64,000 nt of DNA, taken from assembly GCA_035625415.1 (NCBI GenBank), contig DASPPQ010000068.1, forward strand, positions 23,590-87,589. The letters are read 5' to 3'. Positions 983-55,036 of the stretch are shown piece by piece. This DNA is from Thermodesulfobacteriota bacterium (GTDB taxonomy: Bacteria; Desulfobacterota; BSN033; UBA1163). A program made the position numbers and the translations under genes. Under the pieces are notes generated by a model that was not told the DNA's origin, did not search any database, and worked only from the letters and a program-made list of their open reading frames with translations. Positions within the stretch are counted from its first letter, which is position 1; each line of letters opens with the position of its first letter.

Positions 983-1131
983 AAACTCGAAACGCGACAT
1001 CCGAAATTCGAAACAATTCTATCTATTCTATCTAAATGACCAAAATGAGACGTCCAACACATTGCTGTTTTGAAAATTCGCATTTGGAATTTGTTTGGGA
1101 ATTCGATATTCGCATTTCGAATTTCATATTT
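983..1131. repeat. Imperfect palindromic intergenic element with CCAAAT/CGAAAT-type arms (family copy A)
   Basis: Left arm ...catccgaaattcgaaacaattc, right arm atttggaatttgtttgggaattcgatattcgcatttcgaatttc. Same motif family as 3531-3677, 14532-14659, 41688-41807, 48130-48282 and 54895-55036. Confidence 0.5.
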
Positions 1132-1137
1132 TTACAG

Positions 1138-3519
1138 TTAGGCTTTATAAATTTTGACGCGCGTGGATTCATTGATCGGGTATCCGGTCAAAGGATCCAA
1201 ATCTCCCCCGATGAGTCGATAAGGATTTTCCCCCAGGTTTTCGGACCAGCGACCTCCGGATTTGTGTCCCTCGCCAAAAGGAATACTTGCGACCTCCGGC
1301 ATGGCTCCCTTATAAAGGATTGCCCTTGCTTTTATCTTCGCCTTCGGGGATTCCACCCATACCCAGTCTTTATCCTCGACCCCAAGCCGCTTCGCCGTCT
1401 CAGGATTGATCTCCACCCATGTTTCCCATCTCTCAAACACATAGGATCCGACGCTGGCTTGAAGCCAGGGCTGGTTGGCATTGCGGCTGCCTGTCAGCGT
1501 CATTGTTCTAAATATGTTGAGATGAAATGGATACTCTTTTTTATCAGTTCTCTTCTCCGATTCCTCCCAATGGGGGAAGAAAGAAACATCTTTAGGATCA
1601 TAGGCCAAGGGTGGATGAGTTTGCTTCAATCCCTGCGCATAGAACTCGAATTTTTTTGTGGGGGTTCGAAAAACCCGATCCCATTCCTTAAAGTCATAGA
1701 TGGGGTCCCACCATCCCCCTTTCTCTTGAAGCTGTTTCCAGAACTCATCAAAGGTTTTGTAGGAAGGGGCTGCCCAGCCCCCTCTCTCAAGTAGACGGGT
1801 CCAGGCTTGTTCAAACTGGAGGCCGAAGACGTCGCCCCGTTTTGCGTCGAAAACCCCTTTGATCCCGTAAAGCAAGACTTCCTTAAAATCACTCCAGGGA
1901 AAGGCCTTCTGGATCTCTCCCCCTAGGGATTTTGTGATTTGAAGGAGGATGTCACCCGTCGCTTTCGTTTGATAGAGCGGCTCAACGATGGGTTGCCGGA
2001 TTCCGAGAACTGGAAACCCTTTGTTCAAAGAGACAGGATCATCCTGCCATCTTTCAAGGGGCGTATGGTCGGGTAGAATAAGGTCTGCGAATAGGGTCGT
2101 GTCGTCCATGTAGGGGGAAAAACTGACAATCAAAGGAATTTCCACAAAGGCCTTTAAGAAGAGATCTGGATTCGGATTCGAAAAGAGAGGATTACTGTAG
2201 TAAATAAACAGGGCTTCCGGGCGATACGGTTTTCCAGAGGCCGCATTTCTGGCAAAGAAATAGGGTTGCTGGAGCATCACGGAAGATTTCTTCACGCCAT
2301 CGATTCTTTCGACTCGCAGTCCCTTTTCAGCGACAGCATCTTTTCCAAACGGCGGAAGCGACTGAAGGGGAACCGTTCTCGGTACGAGGAGCCCTCCCGA
2401 GGCATCGATGTTACCCGCCAATCCGTTCAGGATTGAAACGGCCATCTGTTGGAAAGGACGATCCCGGAAGCCTATGGCGATAGAGGGCTGGTTTGATGCA
2501 AACTCCCGGGCCAGCCGGATGATCGAATCAACGGGCACGCCTGTCCGCCGAGACACGACATCAGAGTCGTATTCCGAAAGGACAAATTCCTTGAAACCGA
2601 GATGTTCTTTTCCGCTTGGGTCCGTCCAATTTTCAAACCCGGAACTGAGACTGGCCACAAATTCTTTATGGTAAAGTCCCTCCTTAATCATCATATTTGC
2701 AATGCCGAGAGCCAACAACCCTTCGGTTCCGGGCTGGATTGGAAGCCACTCGTCCGCTTTGATGCCGGTGACGGAGAGGCGCGGTTCAATCTGGACCAAT
2801 TTACCACGGCGTTCCGAGTTTCCCCTCCTGAATTGCCCATAAGCACTTAGGGCCTGCACGGGAGACCAGTACGATTCGAGGAGGTCCGAACCAAAAGAGA
2901 GTATGTATCGGACATTTTCGAAGTCATAAGCGGGCAGGGAATGGATTCCCTGAGTGAGATAGAGGCCCTCCATGGTTGGGCCTTCCCATTGAAACTGATT
3001 ATCGATATAATTGGGCGATCCAAAGGTCTCGAGAAAACGTTCCCAAAGACCTCTCATCAACCCCCGGTATCTTCCTCCCAGAAGCACAAGGCGATGAGGC
3101 TCTCCATTTTTCCGGAGTTTTCTCAGTGATTCGGTAACAACGGAAAGCGCCTCATCCCATGAGACCGGTTGCCATCGACCTTCGCCTCTCCTGCCCGACC
3201 TCTTTAAGGGAGTGCGAATGCGGTCCGGATCGTAGAGACCTTGGAGGCTTGCAATCCCTTTGGGACAGAGAGTCCCACGGTTGACAGGATGGAGGGGGTT
3301 TCCAACGATGTTGACGGCCCATCCGTCAATAATTCTAGCCAGTATTCCGCAGCCGCCTGTGCATTGCCCGCAAACGGTAGGAATCCACCTTTCGACACCA
3401 GGAGGATTTAGATTCTTGGCGACTGGGAATTGGGACCATTTCCAGAAACCGCCCCCGAGGGCAATAGCGGTGCCGGCCCCTGCACCCATCTTCAAAAAAT
3501 CCCTACGGCTGAGTTTCAT
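1138..3519 (-). CDS. TAT-exported molybdopterin-oxidoreductase family subunit (PsrA/ActB1-like)
   Basis: Twin-arginine signal MKLSRRDFLKMGAGAG. N-terminal C-x2-C-x3-C...C motif (VCGQCTGGCG...CPKG). About 790 aa with MopB-like length and order. The 20 aa upstream of the TAT Met in the ORF track are translated repeat, so the start is placed at 3519. Confidence 0.8.
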   Translation of the reverse strand: MKLSRRDFLKMGAGAGTAIALGGGFWKWSQFPVAKNLNPPGVERWIPTVCGQCTGGCGILARIIDGWAVNIVGNPLHPVNRGTLCPKGIASLQGLYDPDRIRTPLKRSGRRGEGRWQPVSWDEALSVVTESLRKLRKNGEPHRLVLLGGRYRGLMRGLWERFLETFGSPNYIDNQFQWEGPTMEGLYLTQGIHSLPAYDFENVRYILSFGSDLLESYWSPVQALSAYGQFRRGNSERRGKLVQIEPRLSVTGIKADEWLPIQPGTEGLLALGIANMMIKEGLYHKEFVASLSSGFENWTDPSGKEHLGFKEFVLSEYDSDVVSRRTGVPVDSIIRLAREFASNQPSIAIGFRDRPFQQMAVSILNGLAGNIDASGGLLVPRTVPLQSLPPFGKDAVAEKGLRVERIDGVKKSSVMLQQPYFFARNAASGKPYRPEALFIYYSNPLFSNPNPDLFLKAFVEIPLIVSFSPYMDDTTLFADLILPDHTPLERWQDDPVSLNKGFPVLGIRQPIVEPLYQTKATGDILLQITKSLGGEIQKAFPWSDFKEVLLYGIKGVFDAKRGDVFGLQFEQAWTRLLERGGWAAPSYKTFDEFWKQLQEKGGWWDPIYDFKEWDRVFRTPTKKFEFYAQGLKQTHPPLAYDPKDVSFFPHWEESEKRTDKKEYPFHLNIFRTMTLTGSRNANQPWLQASVGSYVFERWETWVEINPETAKRLGVEDKDWVWVESPKAKIKARAILYKGAMPEVASIPFGEGHKSGGRWSENLGENPYRLIGGDLDPLTGYPINESTRVKIYKA

Positions 3520-3530
3520 CGTATACTCAC

Positions 3531-3677
3531 CAAACTCCAAATTCCAAATTCCAAATCCCAAATCCCAAGTAAATCCCAAGCACCAATTTCAAAATTTCGG
3601 AACGATTTTATTTGAATTTTGAATTTTGCAGATTGGAGTTTATTTGGAATTTGGTGCTTGTCATTTGGTGCTTTCCT
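3531..3677. repeat. Imperfect palindromic intergenic element with (CCAAAT)n left arm and (ATTTGG)n right arm (family copy B)
   Basis: ccaaattccaaattccaaatcccaaatcccaag...aagcaccaatttc // gaatttggtgcttgtcatttggtgcttt. The arms are reverse complements. Spurious ORFs on both strands translate it. Confidence 0.6.
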
Positions 3678-3679
3678 CA

Positions 3680-4186
3680 TTAGACATGGCATTCCAAGCA
3701 ATCATTCGTTACTTTGTTCTCGGAATGGCAGTTCATGCACCAATTCATCGTCATCTTCACCCATGGCCTGGAGGGTGGTCGCTCGCTTTCAGCAATATTT
3801 CCATGGCAGGTCTGACATGGCAGTTTTCCTAGAACCACATGCCGACGGTGGGAAAAGAAGACGTGATCGGGTTCTCCGTATATTCGTCTCCAGGAAATTT
3901 CTCGTCCCTTTTTTTGATATTGTCTGATCTTTTCTTCTTCTGAGGATTTGGTAACCGGTTCTTTATGGCATTCAAGGCAGGTGGTTAGGTCAGGCATTCC
4001 GGAAAAGTTTTGAGTTTTAAAATAACGGTGACAGGAGTCGCACTCTAACCCCTGTTCAATATGTTTCTTATGGTTGAAGGAGATCGGTTGGCCAGTCCTG
4101 GAGCCAATGCCCAAACGGATGAGGAGGAAGAGTATAAGGAACCCTGCCGCCAATCCAATAAGGAAAAATTTCATGCTGTGAGCCAT
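3680..4186 (-). CDS. Pentahaem c-type cytochrome (ActA-like)
   Basis: Five CxxCH motifs (CDSCH, CLECH, CQTCH, CMNCH, CLECH). N-terminal membrane anchor. Lies immediately upstream of the Mo/FeS subunit genes. Confidence 0.75.
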   Translation of the reverse strand: MAHSMKFFLIGLAAGFLILFLLIRLGIGSRTGQPISFNHKKHIEQGLECDSCHRYFKTQNFSGMPDLTTCLECHKEPVTKSSEEEKIRQYQKKGREISWRRIYGEPDHVFFSHRRHVVLGKLPCQTCHGNIAESERPPSRPWVKMTMNWCMNCHSENKVTNDCLECHV

Positions 4187-4345
4187 TTGGTCACTGCCGA
4201 GCTATCCGGAGGATCACCCGACTCCAATAGATCGAATCATAAACAACGATCGTTATTGCAATGAATCTTAAGGGGAAGGGTCTTACAAATCAATACACTA
4301 AATTATGTATTTTTAAAGCAAAAAAACTGTATTTTGAAAAGGCGC

Positions 4346-5650: not shown

Positions 5651-5658
5651 ATGCTTTT

Positions 5659-7272: not shown

Positions 7273-8070
7273 ATGCAGGTCGATATTCAACTGGTTCCAT
7301 CTCCACCGAATTCAGATGCCCTTTTAAATCGAACAGTCGTTGTCGTCGATGTTCTGAGAGCGACTTCTGTCATGGTCAATGCGATATCCCAGGGAGCCTT
7401 GGAGATTCTCCCTTTGGCCGGTGTGGAGGAGGCTCTTCAGATGGCTAAGGTTTTTCCGCGGGGTTCCGTGCTTTTAGGCGGGGAGAGGGAAAGTAAGAGT
7501 ATACCGGGATTTGATTTAGGGAATTCTCCCAAAGAGTATGTCGCCGAAAGTGTGAAAGGGAAGAAACTGATCCTGACGACGACCAACGGAACAAAGGCGT
7601 TTCATTTGGTTTCTTCCGGGAAAGAAGTTTTAGTGGGAAGTTTTCTTAACATTGGAGCCGTGGCACGGAGATGTCTTGAGTCAGGGAGGGAGCTGCTCAT
7701 TTTCCTCTCAGGGGATGAAGGAGGTTTTTCTCTGGAGGACACAGTCTGCGGAGGAATGTTGATCGGTCTGATCACAAAGAAAAGGAAGAAATCTATTTCT
7801 CTGACGGATGCCTCCAGATGCGCCCAGATTCTTTATCAAAGATTCAAAAATAATTTATTAGAAGCTTTTCACCTCTCCTATCATGGAAAACAGTTGATTA
7901 ACCGTGGTTTTGAGGATGACCTTGACTATTGCGCTCAAATCGATATTACCTCCCTTGTCCCCGTATTTAGAGAAGGGGTGATCAGGGCCCCCTCATCCCC
8001 ACCCTCTCCCGCGCGGGGAGAGGGGAAGGGTGAGGGGCGTTATGCGATGCAAATTGAGGAGAACGAGTGA
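7273..8070 (+). CDS. 2-phosphosulfolactate phosphatase (ComB) family protein
   Basis: VVVVDVLRATSVMVNA and LGNSPKE motifs are typical of the ComB family. ATGA overlap with the next gene. Confidence 0.5.
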   Translation: MQVDIQLVPSPPNSDALLNRTVVVVDVLRATSVMVNAISQGALEILPLAGVEEALQMAKVFPRGSVLLGGERESKSIPGFDLGNSPKEYVAESVKGKKLILTTTNGTKAFHLVSSGKEVLVGSFLNIGAVARRCLESGRELLIFLSGDEGGFSLEDTVCGGMLIGLITKKRKKSISLTDASRCAQILYQRFKNNLLEAFHLSYHGKQLINRGFEDDLDYCAQIDITSLVPVFREGVIRAPSSPPSPARGEGKGEGRYAMQIEENE

Positions 8071-8540: not shown

Positions 8541-9761
8541 ATGAAATCTTCTGTCTCTATTGTCAAGTGCAAAGAATATGATGAAGAAAAGGTCTTGAGC
8601 GCGCTTCGCCAGGCCATCGACCTGATCGGAGGGATTCAAACTTTTGTAAACAAAGACAGTCGTGCTCGGCTCGGGGCGCTCTCCTCTCGGCGCTCGTCTC
8701 TCGGCAAAGCCGAGGGAAGCCGAGGGAAGCCACGGGTTCTCCTTAAACCTAATCTCCTTTACGGAAAACCTCCAGAAAAAGCTGTGACGACTCATCCCTC
8801 TGTCGTGAGGGGGATGATCCAGATCGTTCGAGAGGCGGGAGGAGTCCCTTTTATTGGAGATAGTCCTTCGGTCGGAAGTTTGACGAGGACGGCTGAGAAA
8901 GCTGGCATCAAGGCAGTGGCCGATAAGATGAAGTGCCCTCTTGTGGAATTCAACAGACCTGTTCTCCCTTTGAAAGGCGGAGGGAGAACATTTAGACAAT
9001 TGGAAGTTGACCAGACTGTTTTGGAAGCGGATGTGATCATCAACCTTCCTAAATTCAAAACCCATAGCCTGACGCTTCTCACCCTGGGGGTAAAGAACCT
9101 CTTCGGGTGTATCCCCGGACCTAAGAAAGCCTTATGGCATCTCAAGGCAGGAGATGATCGAAAAATCTTTGCCCAAATACTTTTTGATATCTCCCAGGTG
9201 ATCCAGCCCTCCCTCTCCATTTTGGATGGGATTGTGGGGATGGAAGGGAATGGACCGAATAGCGGCCGCCCGATTCCAATAGGATTGGTTCTGGCAAGCG
9301 GGGACCCCTTGAGTTTGGATCAGATCGTATGTGACCTGTTAGGGATTTCAAGGGAATCTCTGTTAACGAATCGTGTGGCGCTTGAACAGGGGATGGGAAA
9401 AGATCCGATTGAGGTTCTGGGGGAAAGGGTACAAGATCTTAAGATTTCCAACTTCCAGTTTCCAGCCCTCTCTCAGCCGGATTGGCACTTACCGGCAATC
9501 TTGAGAAAGGCGTTGAAGAATGCTCTGACTTCCAAACCAGTGATCGATGACGAAGTATGCAAGGATTGTGATCAATGTGCAAAGATCTGCCCACCCCAAG
9601 CCCTAACGAGAAAGGGAACGGATTTGATCTTTGATTACGGAGAATGCATTCGTTGCTTCTGTTGTCTTGAGGTCTGCTCAGAAGGAGCCATCTCGATCAA
9701 ACCAGGATGGGCCTTGAAGCTCGTCAGTGGAAGGTCGAAGGTGGAAAGTGGAAAGCAGTAG
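8541..9761 (+). CDS. DUF362 domain protein with C-terminal 4Fe-4S dicluster
   Basis: DUF362-like core plus CKDCDQCAKICP and CIRCFCCLEVC motifs. Contains a low-complexity insertion (SSRRSSLGKAEGSRGKPR) encoded by a short tandem gccgagggaa repeat. Confidence 0.5.
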   Translation: MKSSVSIVKCKEYDEEKVLSALRQAIDLIGGIQTFVNKDSRARLGALSSRRSSLGKAEGSRGKPRVLLKPNLLYGKPPEKAVTTHPSVVRGMIQIVREAGGVPFIGDSPSVGSLTRTAEKAGIKAVADKMKCPLVEFNRPVLPLKGGGRTFRQLEVDQTVLEADVIINLPKFKTHSLTLLTLGVKNLFGCIPGPKKALWHLKAGDDRKIFAQILFDISQVIQPSLSILDGIVGMEGNGPNSGRPIPIGLVLASGDPLSLDQIVCDLLGISRESLLTNRVALEQGMGKDPIEVLGERVQDLKISNFQFPALSQPDWHLPAILRKALKNALTSKPVIDDEVCKDCDQCAKICPPQALTRKGTDLIFDYGECIRCFCCLEVCSEGAISIKPGWALKLVSGRSKVESGKQ

Positions 9762-9819
9762 GTTGAAGGCAGTAAGCGGAAGGTAGCTGTAGCACCCTCA
9801 TTTACTGTGGGCGAAGATT

Positions 9820-10595: not shown

Positions 10596-10620
10596 GTAGG
10601 GCAAGGCTTTAGCCTTGCTC
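10596..10620 (+). repeat. REP-like hairpin (GTAGGG + 8-bp stem + TTTA loop), left flank of RAYT
   Basis: gtagg gcaaggc ttta gccttgc tc. The 5' GTAG is the tetranucleotide recognised by REP-associated tyrosine transposases. Confidence 0.6.
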
Positions 10621-10670: not shown

Positions 10671-11101
10671 TTGAAGGGTTTCGATTATACGGGCTTCTTT
10701 CACTACTTCGTCACAATTTGCACTTACAAAAAAGAGCGGGTTTTTAAGAATGATCTTCTTTTTGTTAGCTGGCTAACTGACACTTTGCGAGAAAAGTCAA
10801 GTTCTTTTGGGTTTAGAGTCTGGGCATACTGTTTTATGCCGGACCATCTTCACCTTTTGATAGAGGGCAAAGATAACAGTTCGGACAAGAGGGGATTCAT
10901 CTCCTCACATAAGCAATCTACGAGCTTTTATTATAAAAAGAAAACGGGCCTGTCACTTTGCGCACGCGCTGAGAAGAGGAGAAGATACAACGAATGTTGC
11001 ACGCTATATTTTCAATAATCCAGTTAGAAAGGGCCTAGTGGACAACTTCAAGAAATACAAATCTCTTGGCTTCTTTGGATTTGACTTACTCATGGTATAA
11101 A
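10671..11101 (+). pseudogene. REP-associated tyrosine transposase (RAYT)/IS200-like Y1 transposase, frameshifted and truncated
   Basis: N-terminal frame has the HuH motif PDHLHLLIEG. A C-terminal segment in another frame reads ARYIFNNPVRKGLVDNFKKY, the conserved RAYT tail. The two frames cannot be joined without a frameshift and the middle part is missing. Confidence 0.6.
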
Positions 11102-11121: not shown

Positions 11122-11146
11122 AGCAACCCTAAAGGGTTGCCCTACA
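11122..11146 (-). repeat. REP-like hairpin in inverted orientation, right flank of RAYT
   Basis: Reverse complement is gtagggcaaccctttagggttgctc. This matches the left REP except for compensated stem bases. Confidence 0.6.
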
Positions 11147-14531: not shown

Positions 14532-14659
14532 GTCAAATCTCAAATGTCAAAGCCCAAATACCAAAGGAATGCCCAAATATCTTAATGCGAAAATGTCCTT
14601 TCGACATTTAGATTTTGAGCTTTATTTGAACCTTGGACTTTGACATTTGGAATTTTCGG
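14532..14659. repeat. Imperfect palindromic intergenic element with CAAAT arms (family copy C), central 7-bp hairpin
   Basis: ggtcaaatctcaaatgtcaaagcccaaataccaaagg ... ctttggactttgacatttggaattttc. Centre is aaatgtc ctttc gacattt. Confidence 0.55.
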
Positions 14660-14665: not shown

Positions 14666-15127
14666 ATGCGTGCTGTCATCCAAAGGGTAAAATCTGCCCA
14701 GGTTTGTGTGGATGGCCGAGTATCTGGAGAGATTGGAAGAGGCCTTCTGGTGCTCCTCGGTGTGGGAAAGGGGGACGGGGAGAGTGACCTCTCTTTTCTG
14801 ACCTCCAAGATACCTGAACTCAGAATCTTCGAAGACAACTCCGGGAAGTTTAATCTTTCCTTAAAAGAGATAGGTGGAGAGATATTGGTCGTCTCACAGT
14901 TTACTCTTTTCGGCGATTGCCGGAAAGGAAGGAGACCCTCTTTCTCGGAGGCGGAAGAGCCTTCCGCTGCCAAGCATCTTTATGAACAATTTATTCTAAA
15001 ATTGAAGGAAGAAAGCGTTCCGGTCCAGACAGGGAAATTTCAGGCAAAGATGGAGGTTCATCTTATCAACGATGGGCCGGTAACGCTTCTATTGGACAGC
15101 AGACAGAGACAGGGAGATGAATTATGA
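14666..15127 (+). CDS. dtd: D-aminoacyl-tRNA deacylase
   Basis: [33 protein letters not shown] is the canonical Dtd N-terminus. The 11 codons upstream in the ORF track are repeat sequence. Confidence 0.85.
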
Positions 15128-17130: not shown

Positions 17131-17139
17131 AATAAATAA

Positions 17140-17291
17140 AAAGGCCGAATTGAAATAAGCGGGGGAACCAGTTTTTAGGGGTGAATTCTAGACATCTAGA
17201 GAGGATATCCCTTAATCCTAACCCGTCAGCTAACTCCGCAGGCGACTAAGGGAGAGAATCGAACGCAGGGGATCCTCCTCTGCTTTTTTTT
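17140..17291 (+). promoter_or_regulatory. Candidate c-di-AMP (ydaO/kimA-class) riboswitch leader with intrinsic terminator, upstream of kdp operon
   Basis: Contains GCGGGGGAACC, GGGGTGAAT and ACCCGTCAGCTAACTCCGCAGGCG, recalled from memory as c-di-AMP riboswitch signature blocks. Ends in hairpin gcagggg-atcct-cctctgc plus T8. Confidence 0.5.
17265..17291 (+). terminator. Rho-independent terminator/attenuator hairpin + T-run in kdp leader
   Basis: 7-bp GC-rich stem (one G-U pair), 5-nt loop, followed by tttttttt. About 195 nt upstream of the first kdp-associated ORF. Confidence 0.6.
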
Positions 17292-17724: not shown

Positions 17725-19554
17725 ATGTTTATCCAAATCTGGCTTCTACCTTTTTGTTTACTCGCAGCAGCGACCCTGATCGCGTTCCCTTTGAGTCGCT
17801 ACATGGGGTGGATCATGGATGGGAAATACCGGCCTTTGCCGGTGCTGGGCTGGTTCGAAAAGCGTTTGGACAGTGGCTCCCAGAACTGGAAGCAGTATAC
17901 CATCGCATTGCTCATTTTCAACACGCTGATGTTCATCTATGGCTATGTGGTTCTGTCACTCCAGCAGTGGATGCCACTCAATCCGGACGGCAAGGGGATG
18001 ATTTTCCCCACGACTATCTTTCAAGCCGTGACCTCCTTCATGACGAACACGGACCTCCAGCACTATTCGGGCGAACAGGTTTTGTCAAACTTCAGCCAGA
18101 TTTTCTTTGCCATCTTTATGCTGTTTGTGTCTGCGGCGGTCGGCCTATGTGCACTGACTGCGATGATCCGACTCTTCCGTGGCGAGTCCAAAATTGGCAA
18201 CTTCTTTGTAGACATGTGGCGGGTGCTGGTTTACATGTTCGTGCCGACCGCCTTGATTCTCGCCTTCATCTTTATGGTCCAGGGTAGTCCGATGACCTTT
18301 AAAAGTTCTTACCAGGTTTCCACACTCGAACCTGCGGCCATGGGAACCACGGACAAGGGCGAGGCAAAGCAGCAGACGATCATAGTGGGGCCGGTGGCAG
18401 CATTCGAGTCTATGAAGATGCTTGGAACCAACGGGGGTGGATTTTACGGCATGAATTCCGCGCACCCATTTGAAAATCCGACGGGGTTCACGAATTTTTT
18501 CAACACTCTGGGCATGATGATCTTTCCGTTTGCCCTCGTGTTGATGTATGGCCGAATGCTCGGCCGGATGCGGCATGCCTACGTCATTTTCTCAGTCATG
18601 TTGGTGTTGATGGCTGGCACGATCGTCTGGGCAGTCTACTACGATACACTGAAACCAAACCCGGGATTAACCGGCCATCCTATTGCACGAACATACGAAA
18701 TTCCCAGTGGAACAGCACCGGGTGGAAAACGAGTAGTAAGTCTGCCAGCACTCCCAGGGCTGCCGGTGGACCAGTACCTGGGTAACCTTGAAGGGAAGGA
18801 AATGCGATTCGGGATTTCGGCAGGGGCCACCTTCGATGCACTGACGACAGATGTGACGTGCGGCGCGGTGAATGCAGAGGAGAACAGCCTCAACCCGATT
18901 GCAGCCTTGTCGCCCATGGTCGGGATGTGGCTCAACTGTATCTACGGCGGCAAGGGGGTAGGGATGATCAATCTGTTGCTCTACTTAATCATCGGGATCT
19001 TCGTGGCTGGGATGATGGTGGGCCGGACTCCCGAGTATCTGGGTAAGAAAATCGGGGGCCGGGAGGTGAAACTGGCAATCATCGCCCTGCTGGTCCACCC
19101 CTTCATGATTCTCTTCCCTACCGGGCTGTTTGCTGCGACAAGCTGGGGGCTCAAGGCAGTCAGCAACCCTGGTGCGGATGGCTTTTCACAAATCCTGTAC
19201 AACTTTTCCTCGGCCTCCGCCAATAATGGCTCGGCATTCGACGGATTATCAGTTGCCTATGGTTTGGTAAGTAATGCAAATCCGGCGCCGACAGCGATCC
19301 CATGGAATATCGCAGCGGGCCTCGTTGTCGTCTTCAGCCGTTATCTGCCGATTGTGGCGCCGATCGCCATGGCAGCATTTCTCGGAGAGAAGAAATCGAG
19401 CCCTTTTGGTCTGGGGACCCTGCGCGATGATACAGTTACCTTCGGTCTCCTCCTGATCGGGACGATTCTTATCGTCGGAGCGCTCCTTTTTTTGCCTGTC
19501 GCAGCACTGGGACCGCTTGCAGAACACTTAGGTCCCATTCCTTTCGGAGGCTGA
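17725..19554 (+). CDS. kdpA: Potassium-transporting ATPase subunit A
   Basis: 609 aa polytopic protein with typical KdpA selectivity-filter-like repeats (NGGGF region). Sits between kdpF and kdpB. Confidence 0.9.
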
Positions 19555-22959: not shown

Positions 22960-23024
22960 GTCATTCCGGGCTTGACCCGGAATCCAGTTATTTCCCCCCT
23001 GGATTCCTGCTTCGTAGGAATGAC
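22960..23024. repeat. Nested-stem structured element X1 (outer GTCATTCC/GGAATGAC, inner GGAATCCAG/CTGGATTC, two local hairpins)
   Basis: gtcattcc-gggcttgaccc-ggaatccag-ttatttcccccc-ctggattc-ctgcttcgtag-gaatgac. A second copy with compensatory hairpin changes is at 38070-38145. Confidence 0.5.
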
Positions 23025-38069: not shown

Positions 38070-38145
38070 CGTTATTCCTGCGGAAACAGGAATCCAGGAT
38101 TTTCCTTGTGAGAACTTTTCTGGATTCTCGCTTTCGCGGGAATGA
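38070..38145. repeat. Nested-stem structured element X2 (second copy of the 22960-23024 element)
   Basis: gttattcc-tgcggaaaca-ggaatccag-gattttccttgtgagaacttttc-tggattc-tcgctttcgcg-ggaatgac. Sits in a convergent intergenic region (HD-GYP + strand / mazG - strand). Confidence 0.5.
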
Positions 38146-38175
38146 CACCCGTTAGTTACCGACGCAACTTGCAAT

Positions 38176-38909: not shown

Positions 38910-41723
38910 ATGGTAATGGATTACCGTCACACATTAAATCTCCCTAAAACGGACTTCCCCATGAAGGCCAATTTGGCGAAAAGGGAACCTGAGATGCTGG
39001 CGGCCTGGGAGGCGATGGGAATCTATCGTCAAATCATCCAAGGGGCCAAAGGAAGGCCGAAATATATCCTTCACGATGGACCTCCCTATGCAAACGGAAA
39101 TATTCATATCGGGACCGCCTTGAACAAAATCCTAAAAGACTTCATCGTTAAATCGAAGTTCATGACCGGGTTTGACAGCCACTACGTTCCGGGATGGGAC
39201 TGCCATGGGTTACCCGTTGAACACGAAGTGGAAAAAGGCCTCGGCGCGAAAAAAGCCGGTCTCAGTATCGTCGAAATCCGGCGCAGATGCCGGGAGTACG
39301 CAGCAAAATTTGTCGGGATTCAGAAAAAGGAATTTAAGCGGCTCGGAGTTTTCGGGGAATGGGAAAATCCATATCTGACCATGAATTTTGAATATCAGGC
39401 AACCATTGTTCGAGAGTTCGGAAAGTTCCTTTTGGATGGCTTGGTTTACAAAGGAAAAAAGCCCGTCTACTGGTGTCCTACCTGCAAAACGGCTTTAGCT
39501 GAGGCCGAGGTAAAATACGAAGATATCCGTTCCTCCTCCATCTATGTGAAATTTAGAATGATCTCCGATATCGGGAGGGAGTTCCAAAGCCTCAGTGGAA
39601 AACCCGTTTTCGTCATCATTTGGACGACCACTCCCTGGACAATCCCGGCTAATTTGGCAATTGCACTCCATCCTGATTTCACTTATGCAGCAGTGGACGT
39701 GGGGGGTGAAGTCTACATCCTGGCAGAGGGTCTCTTGGAAGAGGTGATGAAGAAATTCGGAATCAAGACATATAAGGTATTGGAGAAATTTCCGGGGAAG
39801 AGATTAGAAGGACTGAAAGCCAGGCATCCCTTCCTCGACCGGGACTCCCTGATCATTCTTGCCTCCTACGTGACTTTGGACGCCGGAACAGGAAGTGTTC
39901 ACACCGCGCCCGGCCATGGTCAGGAGGACTATGAGAGTGGAGTGCAATATGGCCTGGAGGTCTACAGCCCGGTGGACGATGACGGCCGTTTTACCCCGGA
40001 TGTCCTTTTCTTTGCGGGACAGTTCGTTTTTGATGCGAACAACGCTGTAAATAAGAAGCTGGCCGAGGTCGGGGCACTCCTGAAAGAAGAGGTCATGGTG
40101 CATTCCTATCCCCATTGTTGGCGGACCAATGACCCGATTATCTTTCGAGCTACGGAGCAATGGTTCATTTCCATGGATAAGAAAGGATTGAGACAGAATG
40201 CTCTGAAAGCCATCGGTGAGGTGACCTGGATCCCTCCCTGGGGAAGGGATCGTATTCACGGGATGATTGAGAACCGACCGGATTGGTGTGTGTCCAGGCA
40301 GAGGGCCTGGGGCATTCCCATCACCGTTTATTACTGTTCGGCCTGCGAGCAACCCCTGATCAGTCGGCAGGTCATTGACCACACCGTCCGCCTTTTTGAG
40401 ACGGAGGGAGCGGACATCTGGTTTGAAGAGGGGACGAATCGCCTCTTGCCAAAAGGAACCCAATGTCCTGCATGCGGCGGAAAAGATTTTAAGAAGGAGA
40501 CGGATATTCTGGATGTCTGGTTTGACTCAGGAGTTTCCTATGCGGCGGTCCTGGAGAAACGGAAAGAGCTTGAGTATCCGGCCAGTCTTTATCTGGAGGG
40601 AAGCGATCAACACCGGGGATGGTTCCACAGCTCTCTTCTCACTTCTGTCGGCACGAGGGGTCGTGCTCCCTATCTCTCCGTTCTTACCCACGGGTTTGTC
40701 GTGGACGGAGAGGGGAAAAAGATGTCGAAGTCAGCGGGGAATGTGATCGCACCCGAAGAGGTGATCAATCAGCTAGGAGCCGATGTCCTGAGACTTTGGG
40801 TTGCGGCGGAGGATTACAAGGATGACATCAAGATCTCTAACGAAATCCTGAAACGGCTGGCGGATAGCTATTTCCGCATTCGAAATACGTACCGCTTTCT
40901 ATTAGGAAATCTCTACGACTTCCACCCCGAGAAAGACCGGGTTCCCTATCGTGACCTTGAAGAGATGGATCGATGGGCCCTCCATCGGCTCCAGAAAGTC
41001 ACCGCCAGAATTCGCGAGGCTTATGAACGGTTTGAATTCCATGTGGTCTACCACAGCGTTCAGAATTTTTGCGCCGTGGAGATGAGTGCCCTTTATTTCG
41101 ATATTTTGAAGGACCGGCTTTATACATTCCCCTCCGGATCCCGGGGCCGGAAATCGGCGCAGACCGCACTGTACGAAATTTTAGAGGTTTTGACTTGCCT
41201 CATGGCTCCCATTCTTTCGTTTACTTCGGAAGAGGTCTGGAAATATCTTCCTCAAAGACCGGACAAGGCTGAAAGTGTTCACCTGACTGCCTTTCCCGAA
41301 GTGCAGGGTGAATATCTGGACGATGCATTAAGTGAAAGGTGGGACCGGATCTGGGAGATTCGAGCCGTGGTGACCAAGGCTTTGGAAGAGGCCCGGAGGG
41401 AGAAGGTGATCGGGCTCTCGCTGGACGCACAAGTCCATGTCTATCTTCCTGAAAAGGTCTTTTCATTCCTTAAATCTTACGAGAAGGACCTAAAGTCAAT
41501 TTTTATCGTCTCCTCGGTCACCCTTCATCCCGCTGTCAACGGAACCGGGGATGAAAAGGAAACGAGGGTGGAAGTACTCCGGGCAGAGGGCAAGAAATGT
41601 GAGAGATGCTGGAATTACGAAGTGACTGTGGGGGAGCATCCGGAGCATCAGACGATCTGCGGCAGATGCGTCGAGGCGATCCAGGGAGCAAGCACCAAAT
41701 CCCAAGCACCAAACACCAAATAA
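38910..41723 (+). CDS. ileS: Isoleucine--tRNA ligase (type 1, Zn-finger C-terminus)
   Basis: PYANGNIHIGTALNKI (HIGH) and KKMSKSAGN (KMSKS). C-terminus CERCWNY...CGRCV. 937 aa. Confidence 0.95.
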   Translation: MVMDYRHTLNLPKTDFPMKANLAKREPEMLAAWEAMGIYRQIIQGAKGRPKYILHDGPPYANGNIHIGTALNKILKDFIVKSKFMTGFDSHYVPGWDCHGLPVEHEVEKGLGAKKAGLSIVEIRRRCREYAAKFVGIQKKEFKRLGVFGEWENPYLTMNFEYQATIVREFGKFLLDGLVYKGKKPVYWCPTCKTALAEAEVKYEDIRSSSIYVKFRMISDIGREFQSLSGKPVFVIIWTTTPWTIPANLAIALHPDFTYAAVDVGGEVYILAEGLLEEVMKKFGIKTYKVLEKFPGKRLEGLKARHPFLDRDSLIILASYVTLDAGTGSVHTAPGHGQEDYESGVQYGLEVYSPVDDDGRFTPDVLFFAGQFVFDANNAVNKKLAEVGALLKEEVMVHSYPHCWRTNDPIIFRATEQWFISMDKKGLRQNALKAIGEVTWIPPWGRDRIHGMIENRPDWCVSRQRAWGIPITVYYCSACEQPLISRQVIDHTVRLFETEGADIWFEEGTNRLLPKGTQCPACGGKDFKKETDILDVWFDSGVSYAAVLEKRKELEYPASLYLEGSDQHRGWFHSSLLTSVGTRGRAPYLSVLTHGFVVDGEGKKMSKSAGNVIAPEEVINQLGADVLRLWVAAEDYKDDIKISNEILKRLADSYFRIRNTYRFLLGNLYDFHPEKDRVPYRDLEEMDRWALHRLQKVTARIREAYERFEFHVVYHSVQNFCAVEMSALYFDILKDRLYTFPSGSRGRKSAQTALYEILEVLTCLMAPILSFTSEEVWKYLPQRPDKAESVHLTAFPEVQGEYLDDALSERWDRIWEIRAVVTKALEEARREKVIGLSLDAQVHVYLPEKVFSFLKSYEKDLKSIFIVSSVTLHPAVNGTGDEKETRVEVLRAEGKKCERCWNYEVTVGEHPEHQTICGRCVEAIQGASTKSQAPNTK

Positions 41724-41807
41724 GCTCCAATGAATAGAATTCAAGTTTCCAAAAGAAAAAGTCTCGGTCATTGGGATTTGGAATTTAGAATTTGGAATTT
41801 AAGCACC
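41688..41807. repeat. Imperfect palindromic element with CCAAAT arms (family copy D); left arm lies inside the ileS 3' end
   Basis: agcaagcaccaaatcccaagcaccaaacaccaaataa (last 11 codons of ileS) ... cattgggatttggaatttagaatttggaatttaagcacc. Confidence 0.6.
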
Positions 41808-41851: not shown

Positions 41852-42370
41852 GTGGGCATGAAACGGAAATATTGGATCTTTTTGATTTTCTGTTTTGGAG
41901 TTCTGGCGCTCGACCAGTGGACCAAATATCTGATCGTGCAAAAACTGCGTCTCTATCAAAGCGTGCAGGTGATCGACGGATTCTTTAACATTGTCCAGGT
42001 GAGGAATACAGGCGGTGCTTTCGGAATTTTCGGAGGAGGAAAAGGAGGGATCGGTTCCATCCTCTTTGTGGTTGTTTCCCTGATTGCCATTGGGGCCATC
42101 GTTTTTCTCTTCGTTAAAACCAGGGAAAATGAAAAGACTCTCGCCCTCTCATTTTCTTTAATTCTGAGTGGCGCCCTGGGAAACCTCATCGACCGTCTCC
42201 ACTACGGGGAAGTTGTAGATTTCCTGGACTTTCATCTATCTACTTATCACTGGCCCGCCTTCAACGTAGCGGATTCGGCCATCTGCATCGGCATCGGGCT
42301 AATGGCGTTACAGGTATTGATCAGGGATCATAAGAAAAGAACCAAATCCAAAGCACCAAGCCCCAAATAG
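41852..42370 (+). CDS. lspA: Lipoprotein signal peptidase (signal peptidase II)
   Basis: LDQWTKYLIV...NTGGAFGIF...NLIDRL...DFLDF is the LspA pattern. Classic ileS-lspA linkage. Confidence 0.85.
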   Translation: MGMKRKYWIFLIFCFGVLALDQWTKYLIVQKLRLYQSVQVIDGFFNIVQVRNTGGAFGIFGGGKGGIGSILFVVVSLIAIGAIVFLFVKTRENEKTLALSFSLILSGALGNLIDRLHYGEVVDFLDFHLSTYHWPAFNVADSAICIGIGLMALQVLIRDHKKRTKSKAPSPK

Positions 42371-42380
42371 ACTCCAAAAA

Positions 42381-42842
42381 ATGCACCCCGTTCTGTTTCA
42401 ATTCGGAACTTTGCGCATTTACGCGTATGGGTTCTTCATCGCCGTGGGTTTTGTCTCCGCCGTGGTCCTTGCCACCTTGAAAATTCGAAAACCAAATACT
42501 GGGATTTCTTTTGAAAACATCGTGGATCTCTTCTTCTACACAGTCCTGTCAGCTCTTATCGGGTCGAGAGTGCTGTTTGTATTGATCAATTTTGACCTTT
42601 GCCGGAACCATCCGATGCAGATATTCAAGATATGGGAAGGAGGCTTGGTCTTTTACGGCGGGCTTGCCTTGGCTGTCATGGTGGCCTTCTGGTATATGAG
42701 GTGGAACCGGTTGCCCGTTTGGAAATTGGCTGATCTTGTTGGCCATTCCCTCTTTTTTTATGTTATTCTATATGAAGAAAAGATATCGGAGATACAAAGT
42801 TGGCTGTTCTTGAAATCGTTAAATATCCTCATCCGATCTTGA
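42381..42842 (+). pseudogene. lgt: Prolipoprotein diacylglyceryl transferase, N-terminal 40% only (C-terminal catalytic half deleted)
   Basis: Residues 1-125 align to Lgt (FGTLRIYAYGFFIAVGF...VWEGGLVFYGGLALAVM...ADLVGHSL). The reading frame then reads unrelated sequence into def. About 60 nt remain before the def start, so the G..NGEL.GR signature region is absent. Confidence 0.6.
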
Positions 42843-43315
42843 AGAGACGTTCCGAGAACGTAAGTGAGATCGATGGAGAATTAGAAAGATTAATTGAAGA
42901 CATGAAGGAGACCATGTACACGGCGGGTGGAGTCGGATTGGCTGCCTGCCAGGTCGGGGTTCCCCGAAGGGTGATCGTTCTCGATGTCAGTCCAATCGAT
43001 CCTCAATACAGTTTCTTCGCTATGATCAACCCGGAAATCATATCGGAAGAAGGGGAGATTGACCATGAGGAGGGATGTTTGAGCGTCCCGGATTGCTTGG
43101 AAAAGGTGAAAAGGAAGGAAAGGGTCTGTGTGAAGGGGTTGTCTCCACAAGGAACGGAGACGGAGATCAAAGTGGACGGCATATTGGCCATTGCGCTTCA
43201 ACATGAGATTGATCACACCAATGGCATCCTCATCCTGGACAGGGTGAGCCGGCTGAAGAGAGAAATCTATCGGAATAAATTGAAGAAAGAAAAGCGTAAG
43301 GAAGAAAAACGTTGA
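42800..43315 (+). CDS. def: Peptide deformylase
   Basis: GVGLAACQVG, EGCLS and HEIDH motifs. Confidence 0.9.
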   Translation: MAVLEIVKYPHPILKRRSENVSEIDGELERLIEDMKETMYTAGGVGLAACQVGVPRRVIVLDVSPIDPQYSFFAMINPEIISEEGEIDHEEGCLSVPDCLEKVKRKERVCVKGLSPQGTETEIKVDGILAIALQHEIDHTNGILILDRVSRLKREIYRNKLKKEKRKEEKR

Positions 43316-47412: not shown

Positions 47413-47440
47413 GTAGGGTGCGTTCCCAGAACGCGCTGTC
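47413..47440 (+). repeat. Imperfect REP-like GTAGGG hairpin upstream of rpe
   Basis: gtaggg tgcgttc cca gaacgcgc. The 6-bp stem is conserved, the rest diverges. Confidence 0.3.
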
Positions 47441-47469: not shown

Positions 47470-48123
47470 TTGAAAAAAATAGCGCCTTCGATTTTATCGG
47501 CGGATTTCAGCCGGCTCGGTGAGGAGGTCAGGGCAGTCGAAAAGGCTGGGGCGGATGTGATCCATGTCGATGTGATGGATGGGCATTTCGTTCCGAACAT
47601 CACCATCGGCCCTTTGGTTGTGGAGGGACTGAGGAAGTTAACCTCACGGCCTCTCGATGTGCATTTAATGATCGAAAACCCTGATCGCTATATTGAAGCC
47701 TTTGCTCAGGCGGGCGGCGATTGGATAACGATTCATGCTGAGGTGTGCCCCCATCTCAAGAGGACAATCAAGAAGATTCGCGGGCTGAATGTGAGGCCGG
47801 GTGTCGTGCTTAAGCCTGCAACTTCGTTGAACGTCCTTCATACCGTTCTTGAGGATGTGGACTTAGTCCTGGTTATGTCGGTTAACCCCGGGTTTGGCGG
47901 GCAATCGTTTATTCCTTCCACGCTGAAAAAGATTGAACGGTTGAGAAAAATGGTCGATCAAAACCGCCACCCGCTGGAAATAGAGGTGGATGGAGGAGTC
48001 AAAATCGAGAACATCAGGAGGGTCTCAGCAGCCGGCGGAGACATCTTCGTTGTTGGTACGGGCATCTTTAAGACCGAAAGCTACGAAGAGACTATAAAGA
48101 AGTTGAGAGAAGAAATTGGGTGA
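47470..48123 (+). CDS. rpe: Ribulose-phosphate 3-epimerase
   Basis: IAPSILSADFSRLGEEV...HVDVMDGHFVPN...DGGV. TTG start. Confidence 0.9.
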   Translation: MKKIAPSILSADFSRLGEEVRAVEKAGADVIHVDVMDGHFVPNITIGPLVVEGLRKLTSRPLDVHLMIENPDRYIEAFAQAGGDWITIHAEVCPHLKRTIKKIRGLNVRPGVVLKPATSLNVLHTVLEDVDLVLVMSVNPGFGGQSFIPSTLKKIERLRKMVDQNRHPLEIEVDGGVKIENIRRVSAAGGDIFVVGTGIFKTESYEETIKKLREEIG

Positions 48124-48129: not shown

Positions 48130-48282
48130 TACCAAGTTCCAAGCACCAAATCCCAAATAAATTTCAATCACCAAAATCCGAAAAGCCGGGATGGTCATTT
48201 GAGATTGAAATTTGGGCGTAGGGAACGGTTTCAAACCGTTCCCTAAAGGTATTTGGAATTTGTGATTTGGGATTTAAGACAA
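48130..48282. repeat. Imperfect palindromic element with CCAAAT arms (family copy F) enclosing a central REP-like hairpin (48218-48245)
   Basis: accaagttccaagcaccaaatcccaaataaatttcaatcaccaaaatccg ... gtaggg aacggtt tca aaccgtt ccc ... ggtatttggaatttgtgatttgggatttaag. Confidence 0.6.
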
Positions 48283-50363: not shown

Positions 50364-50395
50364 TTTTTTCCTCCTCTACTTTAGAAATTTATTTT

Positions 50396-51691: not shown

Positions 51692-52382
51692 CGTCCCATT
51701 CCCCTTCTTTCAAATAGAAGACTTTTGGTTCCGTCCCTAGATCCTCCATCAGCCGAAAGGCACGTTTGCTCTTGGAGAGCTTAGAAACTCTACTTTCGGA
51801 GTCATTCAAATCACCGAAATAGAGGGCTTCGCTGGGACAAGTCTCGACACAAGCGGGAGTAACTTCGCCATCCTTAATCGTTCGGTTCTCTTTCTTTGCA
51901 TTCATCTTGGCTCTTCGAATCCTTTGAATACAAAAATTGCACTTCTCCGTGATGCCCTTTCTCCGGGGGTAGACATCTGGATTCAACCCTTTCTTATACG
52001 CTTCCGGCCAGGAAGGCGGATACCAGTTGAAATAACGCACCGTATAAGGGCAGTTGGAGATACACATCCTCACCCCGATGCAACGGGAATAGACTTGTGC
52101 GACAATGCCTTCCGGATTTTTGTAGGTGGCTTCAACAGGGCAGACCTTGGTACAGGGCGGTTTATCACAATGCATGCAAGGCAGGGGATTGAAGCGCATC
52201 TCCACATTGGGATAGGCTCCCTTGATCTCATGGATGAGATTCATCCAGAATTTTGCCCTTCCCAGTTTGGCGTATTTTTCTCCCATAATGGGAATATTAT
52301 TCTCCTGGCGGCAGGCCACGACGCAGGCCTGACAGGCGGTGCATTTATCTAAATCAATCACCATTCCCCAGCGATACATCAT
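51681..52382 (-). CDS. 4Fe-4S ferredoxin-type subunit (PsrB/ActB2-like), paralog of 287-970
   Basis: [29 protein letters not shown] plus three further Cys clusters. 233 aa. Confidence 0.8.
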   Translation of the reverse strand: MMYRWGMVIDLDKCTACQACVVACRQENNIPIMGEKYAKLGRAKFWMNLIHEIKGAYPNVEMRFNPLPCMHCDKPPCTKVCPVEATYKNPEGIVAQVYSRCIGVRMCISNCPYTVRYFNWYPPSWPEAYKKGLNPDVYPRRKGITEKCNFCIQRIRRAKMNAKKENRTIKDGEVTPACVETCPSEALYFGDLNDSESRVSKLSKSKRAFRLMEDLGTEPKVFYLKEGEWDDGQ

Positions 52383-52478
52383 GAATCCTGTCTCTTAGTC
52401 TTTTTGTCTTACAGTCTCATAGTTTTTTCATTCAAGGGTCTTATTGTCAATTGACCATTCGACCATAACACTACAGGA

Positions 52479-54866: not shown

Positions 54867-54894
54867 TGCCTAATCCGAATTCGCATAGAGCGCC

Positions 54895-55036
54895 GCGTTT
54901 AAAATCCCAAATCACAAATTTCAAATCGCAAATAAGCACCAATTTCGAATTTCCAATGACCGAACACATTGTATTTCCAATTTGAGCGATTGGAAAATTT
55001 ATTCGAAATTTGGCGTTTGGAATTTGGTGCTTCCGT
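54895..55036. repeat. Imperfect palindromic element with CCAAAT arms (family copy G)
   Basis: aaaatcccaaatcacaaatttcaaatcgcaaataagcaccaatttcgaatttccaatg ... cattggaaaatttattcgaaatttggcgtttggaatttggtgcttccg. Confidence 0.6.

Follow-up and report, generated by a model that had tools for sequence, protein, structure and literature searches.

What are the long palindromes that lie between genes in a 64,000-nucleotide stretch of a Thermodesulfobacteriota genome (contig DASPPQ010000068.1, positions 23,590 to 87,589), and what keeps them there? An earlier note on this stretch, which as a whole is called the window below, had described six intergenic elements, each with a left arm of tandem CCAAAT(C/A) units and a right arm that is the inverted complement, and had considered a mobile repeat, an mRNA-stabilizing hairpin, a terminator, or a binding array for a nucleoid protein as possible roles. 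The sequence of each element was read, and all six were present where they had been placed. They are copies of one dispersed non-coding repeat family, here called the heptad family. The six copies (A to F) and a partial seventh are as follows.

983-1131, unstranded: copy A, a divergent member with CGAAAT/ATTTCG-type heptads (nhmmer E = 3.7e-5; fold z = -2.2)
3528-3677, unstranded: copy B, the best copy in the window (nhmmer E = 3.8e-23; covariance model, 101 bits; fold z = -2.9)
14532-14659, unstranded: copy C, a divergent member of the GTCAAAT/CTCAAAT type (nhmmer E = 4e-8; covariance model, 46 bits; fold z = -5.4)
41688-41807, unstranded: copy D, between ileS and lspA (nhmmer E about 1e-11; fold z = -1.05)
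42342-42376, plus strand: remnant (seventh) copy, left arm only, AACCAAATCCAAAGCACCAAGCCCCAAATAGACTCCAA
48130-48282, unstranded: copy E (nhmmer E = 6e-13; fold z = -5.8)
54895-55036, unstranded: copy F (nhmmer E = 5e-15; covariance model, 60.6 bits; fold z = -3.2)

Phased heptads define one palindromic family

The left arms of the six elements carry CAAR cores at an exact 7-nt spacing, and the right arms carry YTTG cores at an equal spacing. Runs of three or more heptad-core units were found five times in the forward and five times in the reverse direction of the window, every one of them within the elements. A second-order Markov model (100 simulations) gave a chance expectation of 0.06 to 0.07 such runs per direction, with a maximum of 2, so that the 10 observed runs compare with about 0.13 expected for both directions together. 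Self-similarity at lag 7 produced 5 runs in the window, against 0 to 1 for each other lag from 4 to 12. Tandem Repeats Finder reported period-7 arrays in copies B, C, D, E, and F, with a near-perfect run of units in B only (5.6 tandem CCAAATT units at 93%; AAGCACCAA occurs in both arms of this copy), and an inverted-repeat finder returned arm-to-arm inverted repeats of 16 to 44 nt and 70 to 89% complementarity in copies B to F (44 nt and 70% in C). This periodicity, far above chance, bears out the claim that the elements are real.

Each element is an imperfect palindrome of 110 to 150 bp with 6 to 9 phased heptads per arm. The unit consists of a conserved CCAAA core (TTTGG in the opposite arm) and two variable bases, and its variants follow a conserved order: AAGCACC, AAATNCC, AAA[T/C]AAN, NTCCAAT, GACCAAA, ATTCAAA, a free loop, and then the mirror image. 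The aligned window copies share the consensus AAGCACC-AAATNCC-AAGCACC-AAATNCC-AAATAAA-CTCCAAT...loop...TTTCGGTCATTGG-ATTTGG units. The alignment of copies, a step that the earlier note had recommended, revealed ordered unit variants common to them, a heptad register kept in every copy, and a family consensus that is a near-perfect palindrome. Column conservation was 0.8 to 0.99 at the CC and AAA positions and 0.4 to 0.7 at the two linker positions. The description as palindromic heptads therefore stands, whereas that as a plain CCAAAT repeat gives way to a core with two variable bases and position-specific variants; nor are the heptamers uniform, A (CGAAAT type) and C (GTCAAA type) being divergent members.

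The arms are AT-rich (30 to 40% GC, in a window of 48.9% GC), lack a GTAG tag, and are 75 to 78% complementary overall. Among metagenome copies, the loop or spacer ranges from about 10 to more than 60 nt and tolerates insertions. The predicted single-strand folds of the six window copies are hairpins of -21 to -55 kcal/mol, with z-scores against dinucleotide shuffles from -1.05 (D) to -5.8 (E), a test that is conservative because such shuffles retain the complementary composition of both halves.

The elements have the features of paired inverted tandem-heptanucleotide arrays, that is, at least three tandem units per block, blocks on opposite strands, a variable spacer, and an intergenic position. 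Because the CCAAA-N2 unit differs from the described units GTTGCTYN, TCTCCGTS[Y], MTYCTGA, and GGGAATC, the elements form a new family within this class, which is known from Geobacter, Xanthomonas, and cyanobacteria.

The family extends beyond the window

JGI metagenome contigs and IMG/VR were searched with a 15-base consensus seed, AAGCACCAAATNCCAA, and the foreign loci were counted among the 120 matches listed from each. True copies with the full element architecture made up at least 78 loci among the listed metagenome matches (78/120) and at least 8 loci among those from IMG/VR (8/120), where the other seed matches were mostly due to chance. An nhmmer profile built solely from 31 foreign metagenome copies matched the six window sites and nothing else in the window, with E values from 3.7e-5 (A) to 3.8e-23 (B). 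A covariance model based on the consensus-fold structure (R2, 43 pairs), which replaced a model on the RNAalifold default (R1, only 11 pairs), detected B, F, C, E, and D; copy A fell under its cutoff of 0.01.

The metagenome hosts were characterized by GC content only. Among the matches listed, the GC content of the host contigs with the element masked was 34 to 69%, and 107 copies were present in 542 kb of foreign contigs. On these two grounds the family is widespread and not private to the genome of the window. Named genomes with copies comprise a close clade (L007, L008, L011, L015, L017, L020, and L072) and one Desulfobacteraceae metagenome-assembled genome. The host is an uncultured bacterium of a Syntrophales-like clade, and the IleRS of the window is at most 89% identical to that of any GTDB species representative.

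Seven IMG/VR contigs classed as viral (L211, L229, L230, L252, L272, L284, and L287) bear true copies, and on L284 four copies lie within 2.6 kb, adjoining a gene for an Ig-like/TIG-domain protein. These contigs may be real phages, prophage borders, or misclassified bacterial DNA.

Collections of known sequences returned no family member. Rfam 15, searched with the whole window at the gathering threshold, reported only a c-di-AMP riboswitch and nothing on the elements, and searched with ten element-bearing loci at E ≤ 1 it again placed nothing on the elements. The motif strings are absent from the searchable literature, the matches being primers and unrelated sequences only. Plasmid and phage collections yielded plain (TTCCAAA)n simple sequence repeats (SSRs) only. 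Two of these were a perfect single-arm (TTCCAAA)n array followed directly by an (ATTACGA)n array on the Dolichospermum plasmid pAfl69 (L327, 401-470) and a perfect single-arm (TTCCAAA)n microsatellite on Aeromonas salmonicida pAsa5 (L328, 400-450). Both are plain heptanucleotide SSRs with a TTCCAAA unit and without the palindromic architecture of the family.

Placement between operon genes

Each of the six copies in the window separates co-directional genes of an apparent operon, with the left end of the element 3 to 12 nt past the upstream stop codon and the right end 7 to 57 nt ahead of the next start codon (7 to 13 nt in A, B, and C). Copy A fills the spacer between a Mo-pterin subunit gene (1138-3519, minus strand) and a 4Fe-4S subunit gene (287-970, minus strand), and copy B lies between the start codon of the same Mo-pterin subunit gene (3519) and a cytochrome c7 gene (3680-4186, minus strand). 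Copy C separates the elongation factor G (EF-G) gene (stop codon at 14520) from dtd (ATG at 14666), and copy E separates rpe (stop codon at 48123) from a DUF3786 gene (start at about 48320). Copy F is between a second cytochrome c7 gene (55067-55615, minus strand) and a second Mo-pterin subunit gene, which starts at 54866. A short GC-rich heptad array of a different type adjoins this copy on each side, GCATAGAGCGC at 54882-54892 and CTCTATGCTCTCGCTATGCGC at 55039-55059. The two Mo-enzyme operons are ancient paralogs (36 to 61% amino acid identity), and both carry a copy at the cytochrome c7-Mo junction, a shared placement with a chance probability of about 6%, given 6 occupied spacers out of 24.

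The placement of all elements in intergenic regions, as first described, was upheld for every copy except D, which overlaps the 3' end of ileS and is hence not strictly intergenic. The ileS frame enters the left arm of D for 13 codons and stops at a TAA within CAAATAA (41721-41723); a 9-nt segment with the ancestral ileS stop codon is retained in the relative L020 and deleted in the window. The remnant copy, which adds a seventh to the six, supplies the last lspA codons and a TAG stop codon 10 nt ahead of the lgt start codon. Since both ileS (at 41685-41723) and lspA (at 42342-42370) read into left arms of elements and take their stop codons from them, the two proteins have lineage-specific C-terminal tails.

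The elements also affect annotation and assembly. Artefactual short open reading frames (ORFs) span them, as had been noted for six-frame calling, and a 45-amino-acid "gene" inside B comes from a public gene caller. A public short-read contig terminates inside the array of copy B. Copy E is identical in six other assemblies of the same strain, and for E and B together seven other assemblies all match the window exactly; being identical, they are uninformative on slippage or excision at these copies. The strain is contained in peat or groundwater samples (ENA ERZ272512xx and JGI 3300020150).

Terminator and RNA tests

Long hairpins shortly after stop codons, with right ends that often finish in ATTT(T)A, could be intrinsic (Rho-independent) terminators or attenuators at operon boundaries. 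A terminator scan of the window picked up 0 of the 6 elements, and its match count was at chance level. The stems are AT-rich and mismatched, with no T-run longer than 4, and the GC-rich stem and T-run of a terminator were found in no copy. In addition, the elements lie inside conserved operons (ileS-lspA-lgt and cytochrome c7-Mo-FeS), and none of the 4 convergent spacers of the window carries one. The proposal that the elements are terminators was therefore abandoned as scarcely credible.

A functional intercistronic RNA hairpin is harder to dismiss. Such a structure would block 3' exonucleases or RNase attack, or it would couple translation, a ribosome that stops about 12 nt upstream melting the base of the stem and releasing the U/G-rich 3' arm next to the ribosome-binding site that follows. 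Hairpins of this kind have precedents in the ERIC and Correia elements. The predicted folding energies, the position of all six window copies between operon genes (ileS-lspA, rpe-DUF3786, EF-G-dtd, and cytochrome c7-Mo-FeS), the short distance from A, B, and C to the next start codon, and the paired placement in the paralogous Mo-enzyme operons would all suit this explanation. Across the family, the left end lies a median of 12 nt after the upstream stop codon (interquartile range, 3 to 34).

Covariation was also in its favor. In the model alignment, pairing was 75.0% against the 70.9% expected from column composition, double changes numbered 370 against 248 in shuffles (reached in 0 of 500 shuffles), and variable pairs were Watson-Crick in 45% of cases, with 37% expected. 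The excess lay only in the inner stem and a single landmark pair, and the outer linker positions paired at or below expectation, so that most of the complementarity comes simply from both arms obeying one unit consensus.

Other results do not bear the signature of selection on a transcript. Among 49 copies with co-directional flanks, G·U pairs on the transcribed strand were not in excess over A·C (101 sense versus 95 antisense), and arm mismatches comprised more transversions than transitions (285 versus 196), in arms whose complementarity is incomplete. Copy D folds no better than its shuffles. By crude ORF calling, 51 spacers were co-directional, 8 divergent, and 7 convergent, which is approximately what genomes offer; accordingly, the flanking genes diverge or converge at about 23% of the copies with two called flanks. 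At some orthologous sites one arm of the copy is gone while the operon was retained. A tie between orientation and transcription was considered and rejected as not robust: the ratio was 30:16 among 46 copies (p = 0.054), 25:14 after removal of the window and L020 copies (p = 0.11), and 14:11 for clearly asymmetric copies only, gene orientation in metagenome contigs being taken from longest-ORF calls. Window copies B, D, E, and F do fit the mRNA sense better, at 10 of 10 pairs, but the signal fails to generalize. An incidental hairpin in the mRNA is still to be expected, whereas the G·U bias, robust orientation bias, and outer pairing of a selected one were not found, and we consider a functional RNA hairpin unlikely.

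Tests for mobile DNA

We then asked how far the elements resemble known mobile repeats. Like MITEs, the miniature inverted-repeat transposable elements, they are small (less than 300 bp), non-coding, and multi-copy, with inverted arms. No target-site duplication, for which a check of the element ends had been proposed, was detected: the longest shared flank k-mer averaged 3.38, compared with 3.29 ± 0.09 for shuffled pairings (56 full-length copies). About half of the left ends have TA or TAA in front of them, a pattern for which the neighboring stop codon is a confounder and which the right ends do not repeat. Instead of sharp termini, the elements have ends that are ragged in whole-heptad steps. 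Between paired copies, the genes found were mreB, dnaG, liv ABC, glycosyltransferase, enoyl-CoA hydratase, and pilin genes only, so the autonomous parent element that the earlier note had proposed to look for was not found there, a full parent search not being possible. The suggestion of a MITE-like repeat is thus right in that the family is dispersed and multi-copy and has one consensus across many organisms; it is wrong as to the MITE hallmarks.

Repetitive extragenic palindromes (REPs) and their paired form (REPINs) are likewise abundant intergenic hairpin repeats, mobilized by RAYT/Y1 enzymes without target duplication, and their doublets form long hairpins. Unlike a member of the heptad family, a REP is a short palindrome, rich in GC, that bears a 5' tag of GTAG or CGTC; neither this tagged palindrome nor a RAYT gene flanked by the repeat was found for the family. 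The window does contain REPs, as a separate layer:

10671-11018, plus strand: Y1 transposase ORF (IS200-like, PF01797, E = 7.5e-8), 115 amino acids, short or truncated-looking
48218-48245, unstranded: GTAG-tagged REP hairpin, GTAGGGAACGGTTTCAAACCGTTCCCTA, of a different repeat family, nested in the right arm of copy E

The Y1 ORF, the sole Y1 transposase gene in the window, is flanked not by heptad elements but by inverted GTAG-tagged GTAGGGCAA... REPs at about 10596-10620 and 11122-11145, whose hairpins are GTAGGGCAAGGCTTTAGCCTTGC and, on the opposite strand, GTAGGGCAACCCTTTAGGGTTGC. This is the classic RAYT arrangement. The same REP type is the one nested in copy E, and a related REP is present at about 47413-47440. 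The view that the elements are unlike the GC-rich REPs was thus correct; the REP hairpin that had been assigned to the center of copy F actually lies in the right arm of the fifth copy, E. REPs also insert into heptad elements, in copy E and in many metagenome copies, where nested GC-rich hairpins are common.

Taken together, the element has none of the hallmarks of a MITE, a REP, or a terminator and no transcription-strand signature. A purely selfish or neutral repeat of MITE or REPIN style, copied into spacers, tolerated mainly just past stop codons, and then decaying, with no host role or dedicated binder, would nevertheless explain a good deal: a multi-copy family with one consensus in hosts of 34 to 69% GC, near-perfect "young" palindromes (L113, L174, L095, and L190) alongside degraded copies, decay through deletion and nested insertion, spacer types close to the supply, and ordinary housekeeping genes between paired copies. 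Any apparent conservation would then be due to gene conversion among copies, or to insertion that was recent or repeated. In line with this, orthologs were not measurably closer to each other than to other members, in a weak test with a crude aligner whose numbers were discarded. The missing duplication, the ragged termini, the lack of a parent element or associated transposase between paired copies, and the REPs around the Y1 gene argue the other way, as does the behavior of orthologous copies described next. We regard this explanation as possible, if on the improbable side.

Persistence and decay at orthologous sites

Copy D of the window has an ortholog in L020, at the same junctions. The arms of the two agree at 67 of 76 positions (88% identity), compared with 54% for the loop, 53% for the downstream spacer, and 57% for ileS fourfold sites (p = 6e-9). 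The copy at the lspA-lgt junction is present as a remnant in the window, in fuller form in L008, L011, L015, L017, and L072, and absent from L009 and L020. Among the genomes of this comparison the ileS fourfold sites are saturated (34 to 47% identity). Between L015 and L017, the junction arms are identical at 78 of 93 positions, against 40% at fourfold sites, and the two copies have copy-specific unit variants in common, which argues for one old insertion. These identities are ungapped and MAFFT block identities; a permissive global aligner gave 0.755 even for shuffled sequences, and its identities were discarded. At both sites the arms stay consensus-like while loops, flanks, and fourfold sites have fallen to 40 to 57%, which speaks against a purely selfish or neutral repeat. 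Our firm conclusion is that old copies stay consensus-like in their arms only.

Element length differs in approximately whole-heptad steps, both between arms and between orthologous copies, and slippage is the likely cause of these differences.

Comparison with other heptanucleotide arrays

The ileS-lspA spacers of 16 close relatives almost always contain 7-nt arrays, usually of other units and often as inverted pairs, with units such as GCGGATT, GCGCAGA/CTATGCG, CATCAGG/CCTGATA, GACCATA, and CTCAAAG/CTTTGAA. In close relatives, lag 7 gave 23 runs versus 10 at lag 8 and none at other lags; in distant relatives it gave 35 runs versus at most 15 at other lags. L020 has a CTTTACG array at the position of window copy E. 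Within the window, a further array stands out:

52383-52478, unstranded: another heptad family, inverted 7-8-nt arrays TGTCTCT/TAGTCTT...GACCATT/CGACCAT

This array fills the Mo-FeS junction of the second Mo-enzyme operon, the counterpart of the copy A site in the first, and is not matched by the heptad-family profile; GACCATA arrays also occur in the relative L017. Other 7-nt arrays of the GTGGAAA and CTCAAAC/GTCAAAG types are found at 9726-9790 and 55616-55689, and the GCATAGAGCGC/CTATGCG arrays around copy F (54882-54892 and 55039-55059) are of the type seen in the ileS-lspA spacers of L009, L010, and L013. Since the window holds several types of array unit, several heptad families coexist in one genome.

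Heptanucleotide repeats are the most over-represented class of long repeats in bacteria. Among long SSRs they are the commonest, and polymerase slippage has been proposed as their origin, according to Mrazek 2007 as cited in PMC4679880. Could the elements be independent local products of 7-nt slippage and quasi-palindrome template switching, with no common descent? The dominance of lag 7 in the window and its relatives, the varying number of units between arms and orthologs, the many unrelated heptad types in orthologous spacers, and the plain (TTCCAAA)n arrays on the cyanobacterial and Aeromonas plasmids would all fit. On the other hand, the ordered variants and the landmarks AAGCACC, CAAATAAG, and CCAATGACC/GGTCATTGG are found in every copy of the window and across dozens of contigs unrelated to it. 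These landmarks are mostly outside the seed used to collect copies. The profile made from foreign copies matches the window copies with E values down to 4e-23. Slippage cannot create this recurring consensus repeatedly and probably modulates length; as the origin of the elements it is very improbable.

Long heptanucleotide SSRs resemble the family in their head-to-tail 7-nt period, intergenic position, variable copy number, closeness to start or stop codons, and liability to slippage. They include the cyanobacterial short tandemly repeated repetitive (STRR) sequences, which are long heptanucleotide repeats (Mazel 1990 as cited in PMC4679880 and PMC4692102), and the TAACTGA arrays that adjoin start codons in Beggiatoaceae (MacGregor 2015; PMC4679880). 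They are mostly direct arrays of one unit, whereas the heptad family, in which near-perfect repetition of one unit was seen in copy B only, consists of inverted pairs with a composite consensus and a central unique segment.

Closer parallels are the paired tandem heptanucleotide sites on opposite strands of Geobacter metallireducens, proposed as global-regulator sites (Aklujkar et al. 2009, PMC2700814) and guessed to bind IHF/HU (PMC2700814). As in the heptad family, classes 1 to 3 of these sites occur in a host of the former Deltaproteobacteria, are intergenic, including intercistronic (proB-proA), and consist of two opposite-strand blocks of three to five tandem 7-9-nt units that a variable spacer separates; a genome has tens of copies. 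Their units (GTTGCTYN, TCTCCGTS[Y], and MTYCTGA) differ, and three of the four site classes (1 to 3) were described as unique to one genome, whereas the heptad family is present in many lineages with a fixed variant order. Xanthomonas has GGGAATC arrays, with 70 to 75 facing opposite-strand pairs per genome, and Nostoc has GGGGAYT arrays (Rehm et al. 2015, PMC4692102); species agree in whether an array is single or paired but differ in its length (PMC4692102). These arrays share with the family the heptameric unit, the intergenic position, and the convergent array pairs. They are G-rich near-perfect repeats with G-quadruplex potential, whereas the heptad family is AT-rich, G-poor on one arm, and built of non-identical units.

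With regard to lifestyle, the nearest analogues may be ERIC- or Correia-like elements, to which the heptad family has no sequence similarity, as it has no Rfam match. ERIC (also IRU) of enterobacteria and Correia of Neisseria are imperfect palindromes of about 100 to 150 bp that are non-coding, transcribed, and intergenic, often within operons. Their copies are conserved at orthologous sites, and other elements insert inside them. Correia elements have 26-bp terminal inverted repeats and a TA duplication, and the arms of ERIC and Correia elements are not phased heptads; no duplication was seen for the heptad family.

A candidate protein-binding array

Conserved cores, free linkers and a free loop, orientation independence, and arms that persist at orthologous sites are the features on which our preferred explanation is based. 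The family may be held by sequence-specific recognition of its phased CCAAA/TTTGG cores on duplex DNA by a putative protein, a reading that we put forward tentatively and short of even confidence. Among the roles first listed, a putative nucleoid-protein binding array is the option that best fits the cores, linkers, and loop. The element would be an operator-like array that a small DNA-binding protein reads from both sides; this protein could be either the factor spreading the element or a nucleoid or regulatory protein. Element length also shifts by approximately whole heptads, other hairpin repeats invade, and copies decay by deletion. Where co-transcribed, the element must form a long AU-rich hairpin in the polycistronic mRNA, which we regard as a by-product and not as a selected feature.

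The paired Geobacter metallireducens sites, proposed for a global regulator, are one precedent for such recognition. Another is offered by the omega ribbon-helix-helix repressor of pSM19035, a small dimer that reads contiguous 7-bp heptads cooperatively, in direct and inverted orientation. Its operator units, WATCACW, have conserved cores and free flanks and occur at a few plasmid promoter and centromere sites. The resemblance to the heptad family is in mechanism only, no omega-like protein being linked to the family.

Several observations weigh against recognition by a protein. No protein binding the heptads was identified. In the inner stem near the loop, Watson-Crick pairs make up 53 to 68% where 35 to 41% are expected, and this covariation implies some selection or templating for pairing. 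The relatives have unrelated heptad families in the same spacers, and one specific protein cannot account for all of these. That old copies are still consensus-like is a firmer statement than that they are under orthology-specific constraint, because any two in-register members share about 70% of positions. What looks like purifying selection could also be the outcome of gene conversion from other copies or of insertions that hit one site repeatedly. Finally, several orthologous copies clearly decay: the window remnant has lost its right arm, the L008 copy has a degenerate one, and another element splits the copy in L007. The element is dispensable at individual sites.

A wider proposal is that the CCAAA-N2 family and the other heptad families might all be operator-like arrays, either for a putative sequence-specific nucleoid or regulatory factor or for a new mobilizing enzyme that works without duplication. 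We hold this extension to be doubtful.

Other features of the window

A second MITE-like palindromic family is represented at 22960-23024 and 38071-38146 (GTCATTCC...GGAATCCAG and CTGGATTC...GGAATGAC), and in L007 a copy of it (9470-9570) has inserted into the heptad element between ileS and lspA. C-rich/G-rich hairpins of CCYTC-like pentamers occur at 7989-8037 and 57843-57887 (CCCCTCATCCCCACCCTCTCCC and GGGAGAGGGG...). They resemble the "class 4" multicopy sites of Geobacter metallireducens, and hairpins like them lie within the loop in some metagenome copies, such as L106.

The lgt gene downstream of the remnant copy (42381-42842) encodes only 153 amino acids and matches positions 1 to 120 of the Pfam LGT model, which has 240. 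The C-terminal half of the gene, about 356 nt, is missing, as judged from the distance between the lgt and fmt starts, which is 931 nt in the window versus 1287 nt in L008 and L020. Either a genuine deletion or pseudogene or a collapse in the assembly could account for the loss. The region at 42800-43315 was considered as the C-terminal half of a frameshifted lgt and rejected, since it is def (peptide deformylase).

The c-di-AMP (ydaO-type) riboswitch reported by Rfam is at 17133-17259 on the plus strand (98 bits; E = 5e-22). It lies upstream of a kdp operon for potassium transport, comprising kdpA (17725-19554), kdpB, kdpC, a porin gene, and kdpD, which is a known arrangement.

Implications

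In practical terms, elements of this family break short-read assemblies, create false short genes, and rewrite the 3' ends of real genes. The family is unusually tractable, with a composite consensus that is open to modeling, copies in many uncultured lineages, and positions in well-known operons (ileS-lspA-lgt, rpe, and respiratory Mo-enzyme operons). Its arms are retained at orthologous sites while neutral sites saturate. With these properties, the choice between a protein array, an RNA device, and selfish DNA is directly testable. If heptad arrays are indeed read by a nucleoid or regulatory factor, that factor would act on hundreds of intercistronic spacers, and the arrays with their protein would constitute a genome-wide cis-element/protein system common to several environmental bacterial lineages. 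Such a system could also account for the preference of bacterial repeats for a 7-nt period.

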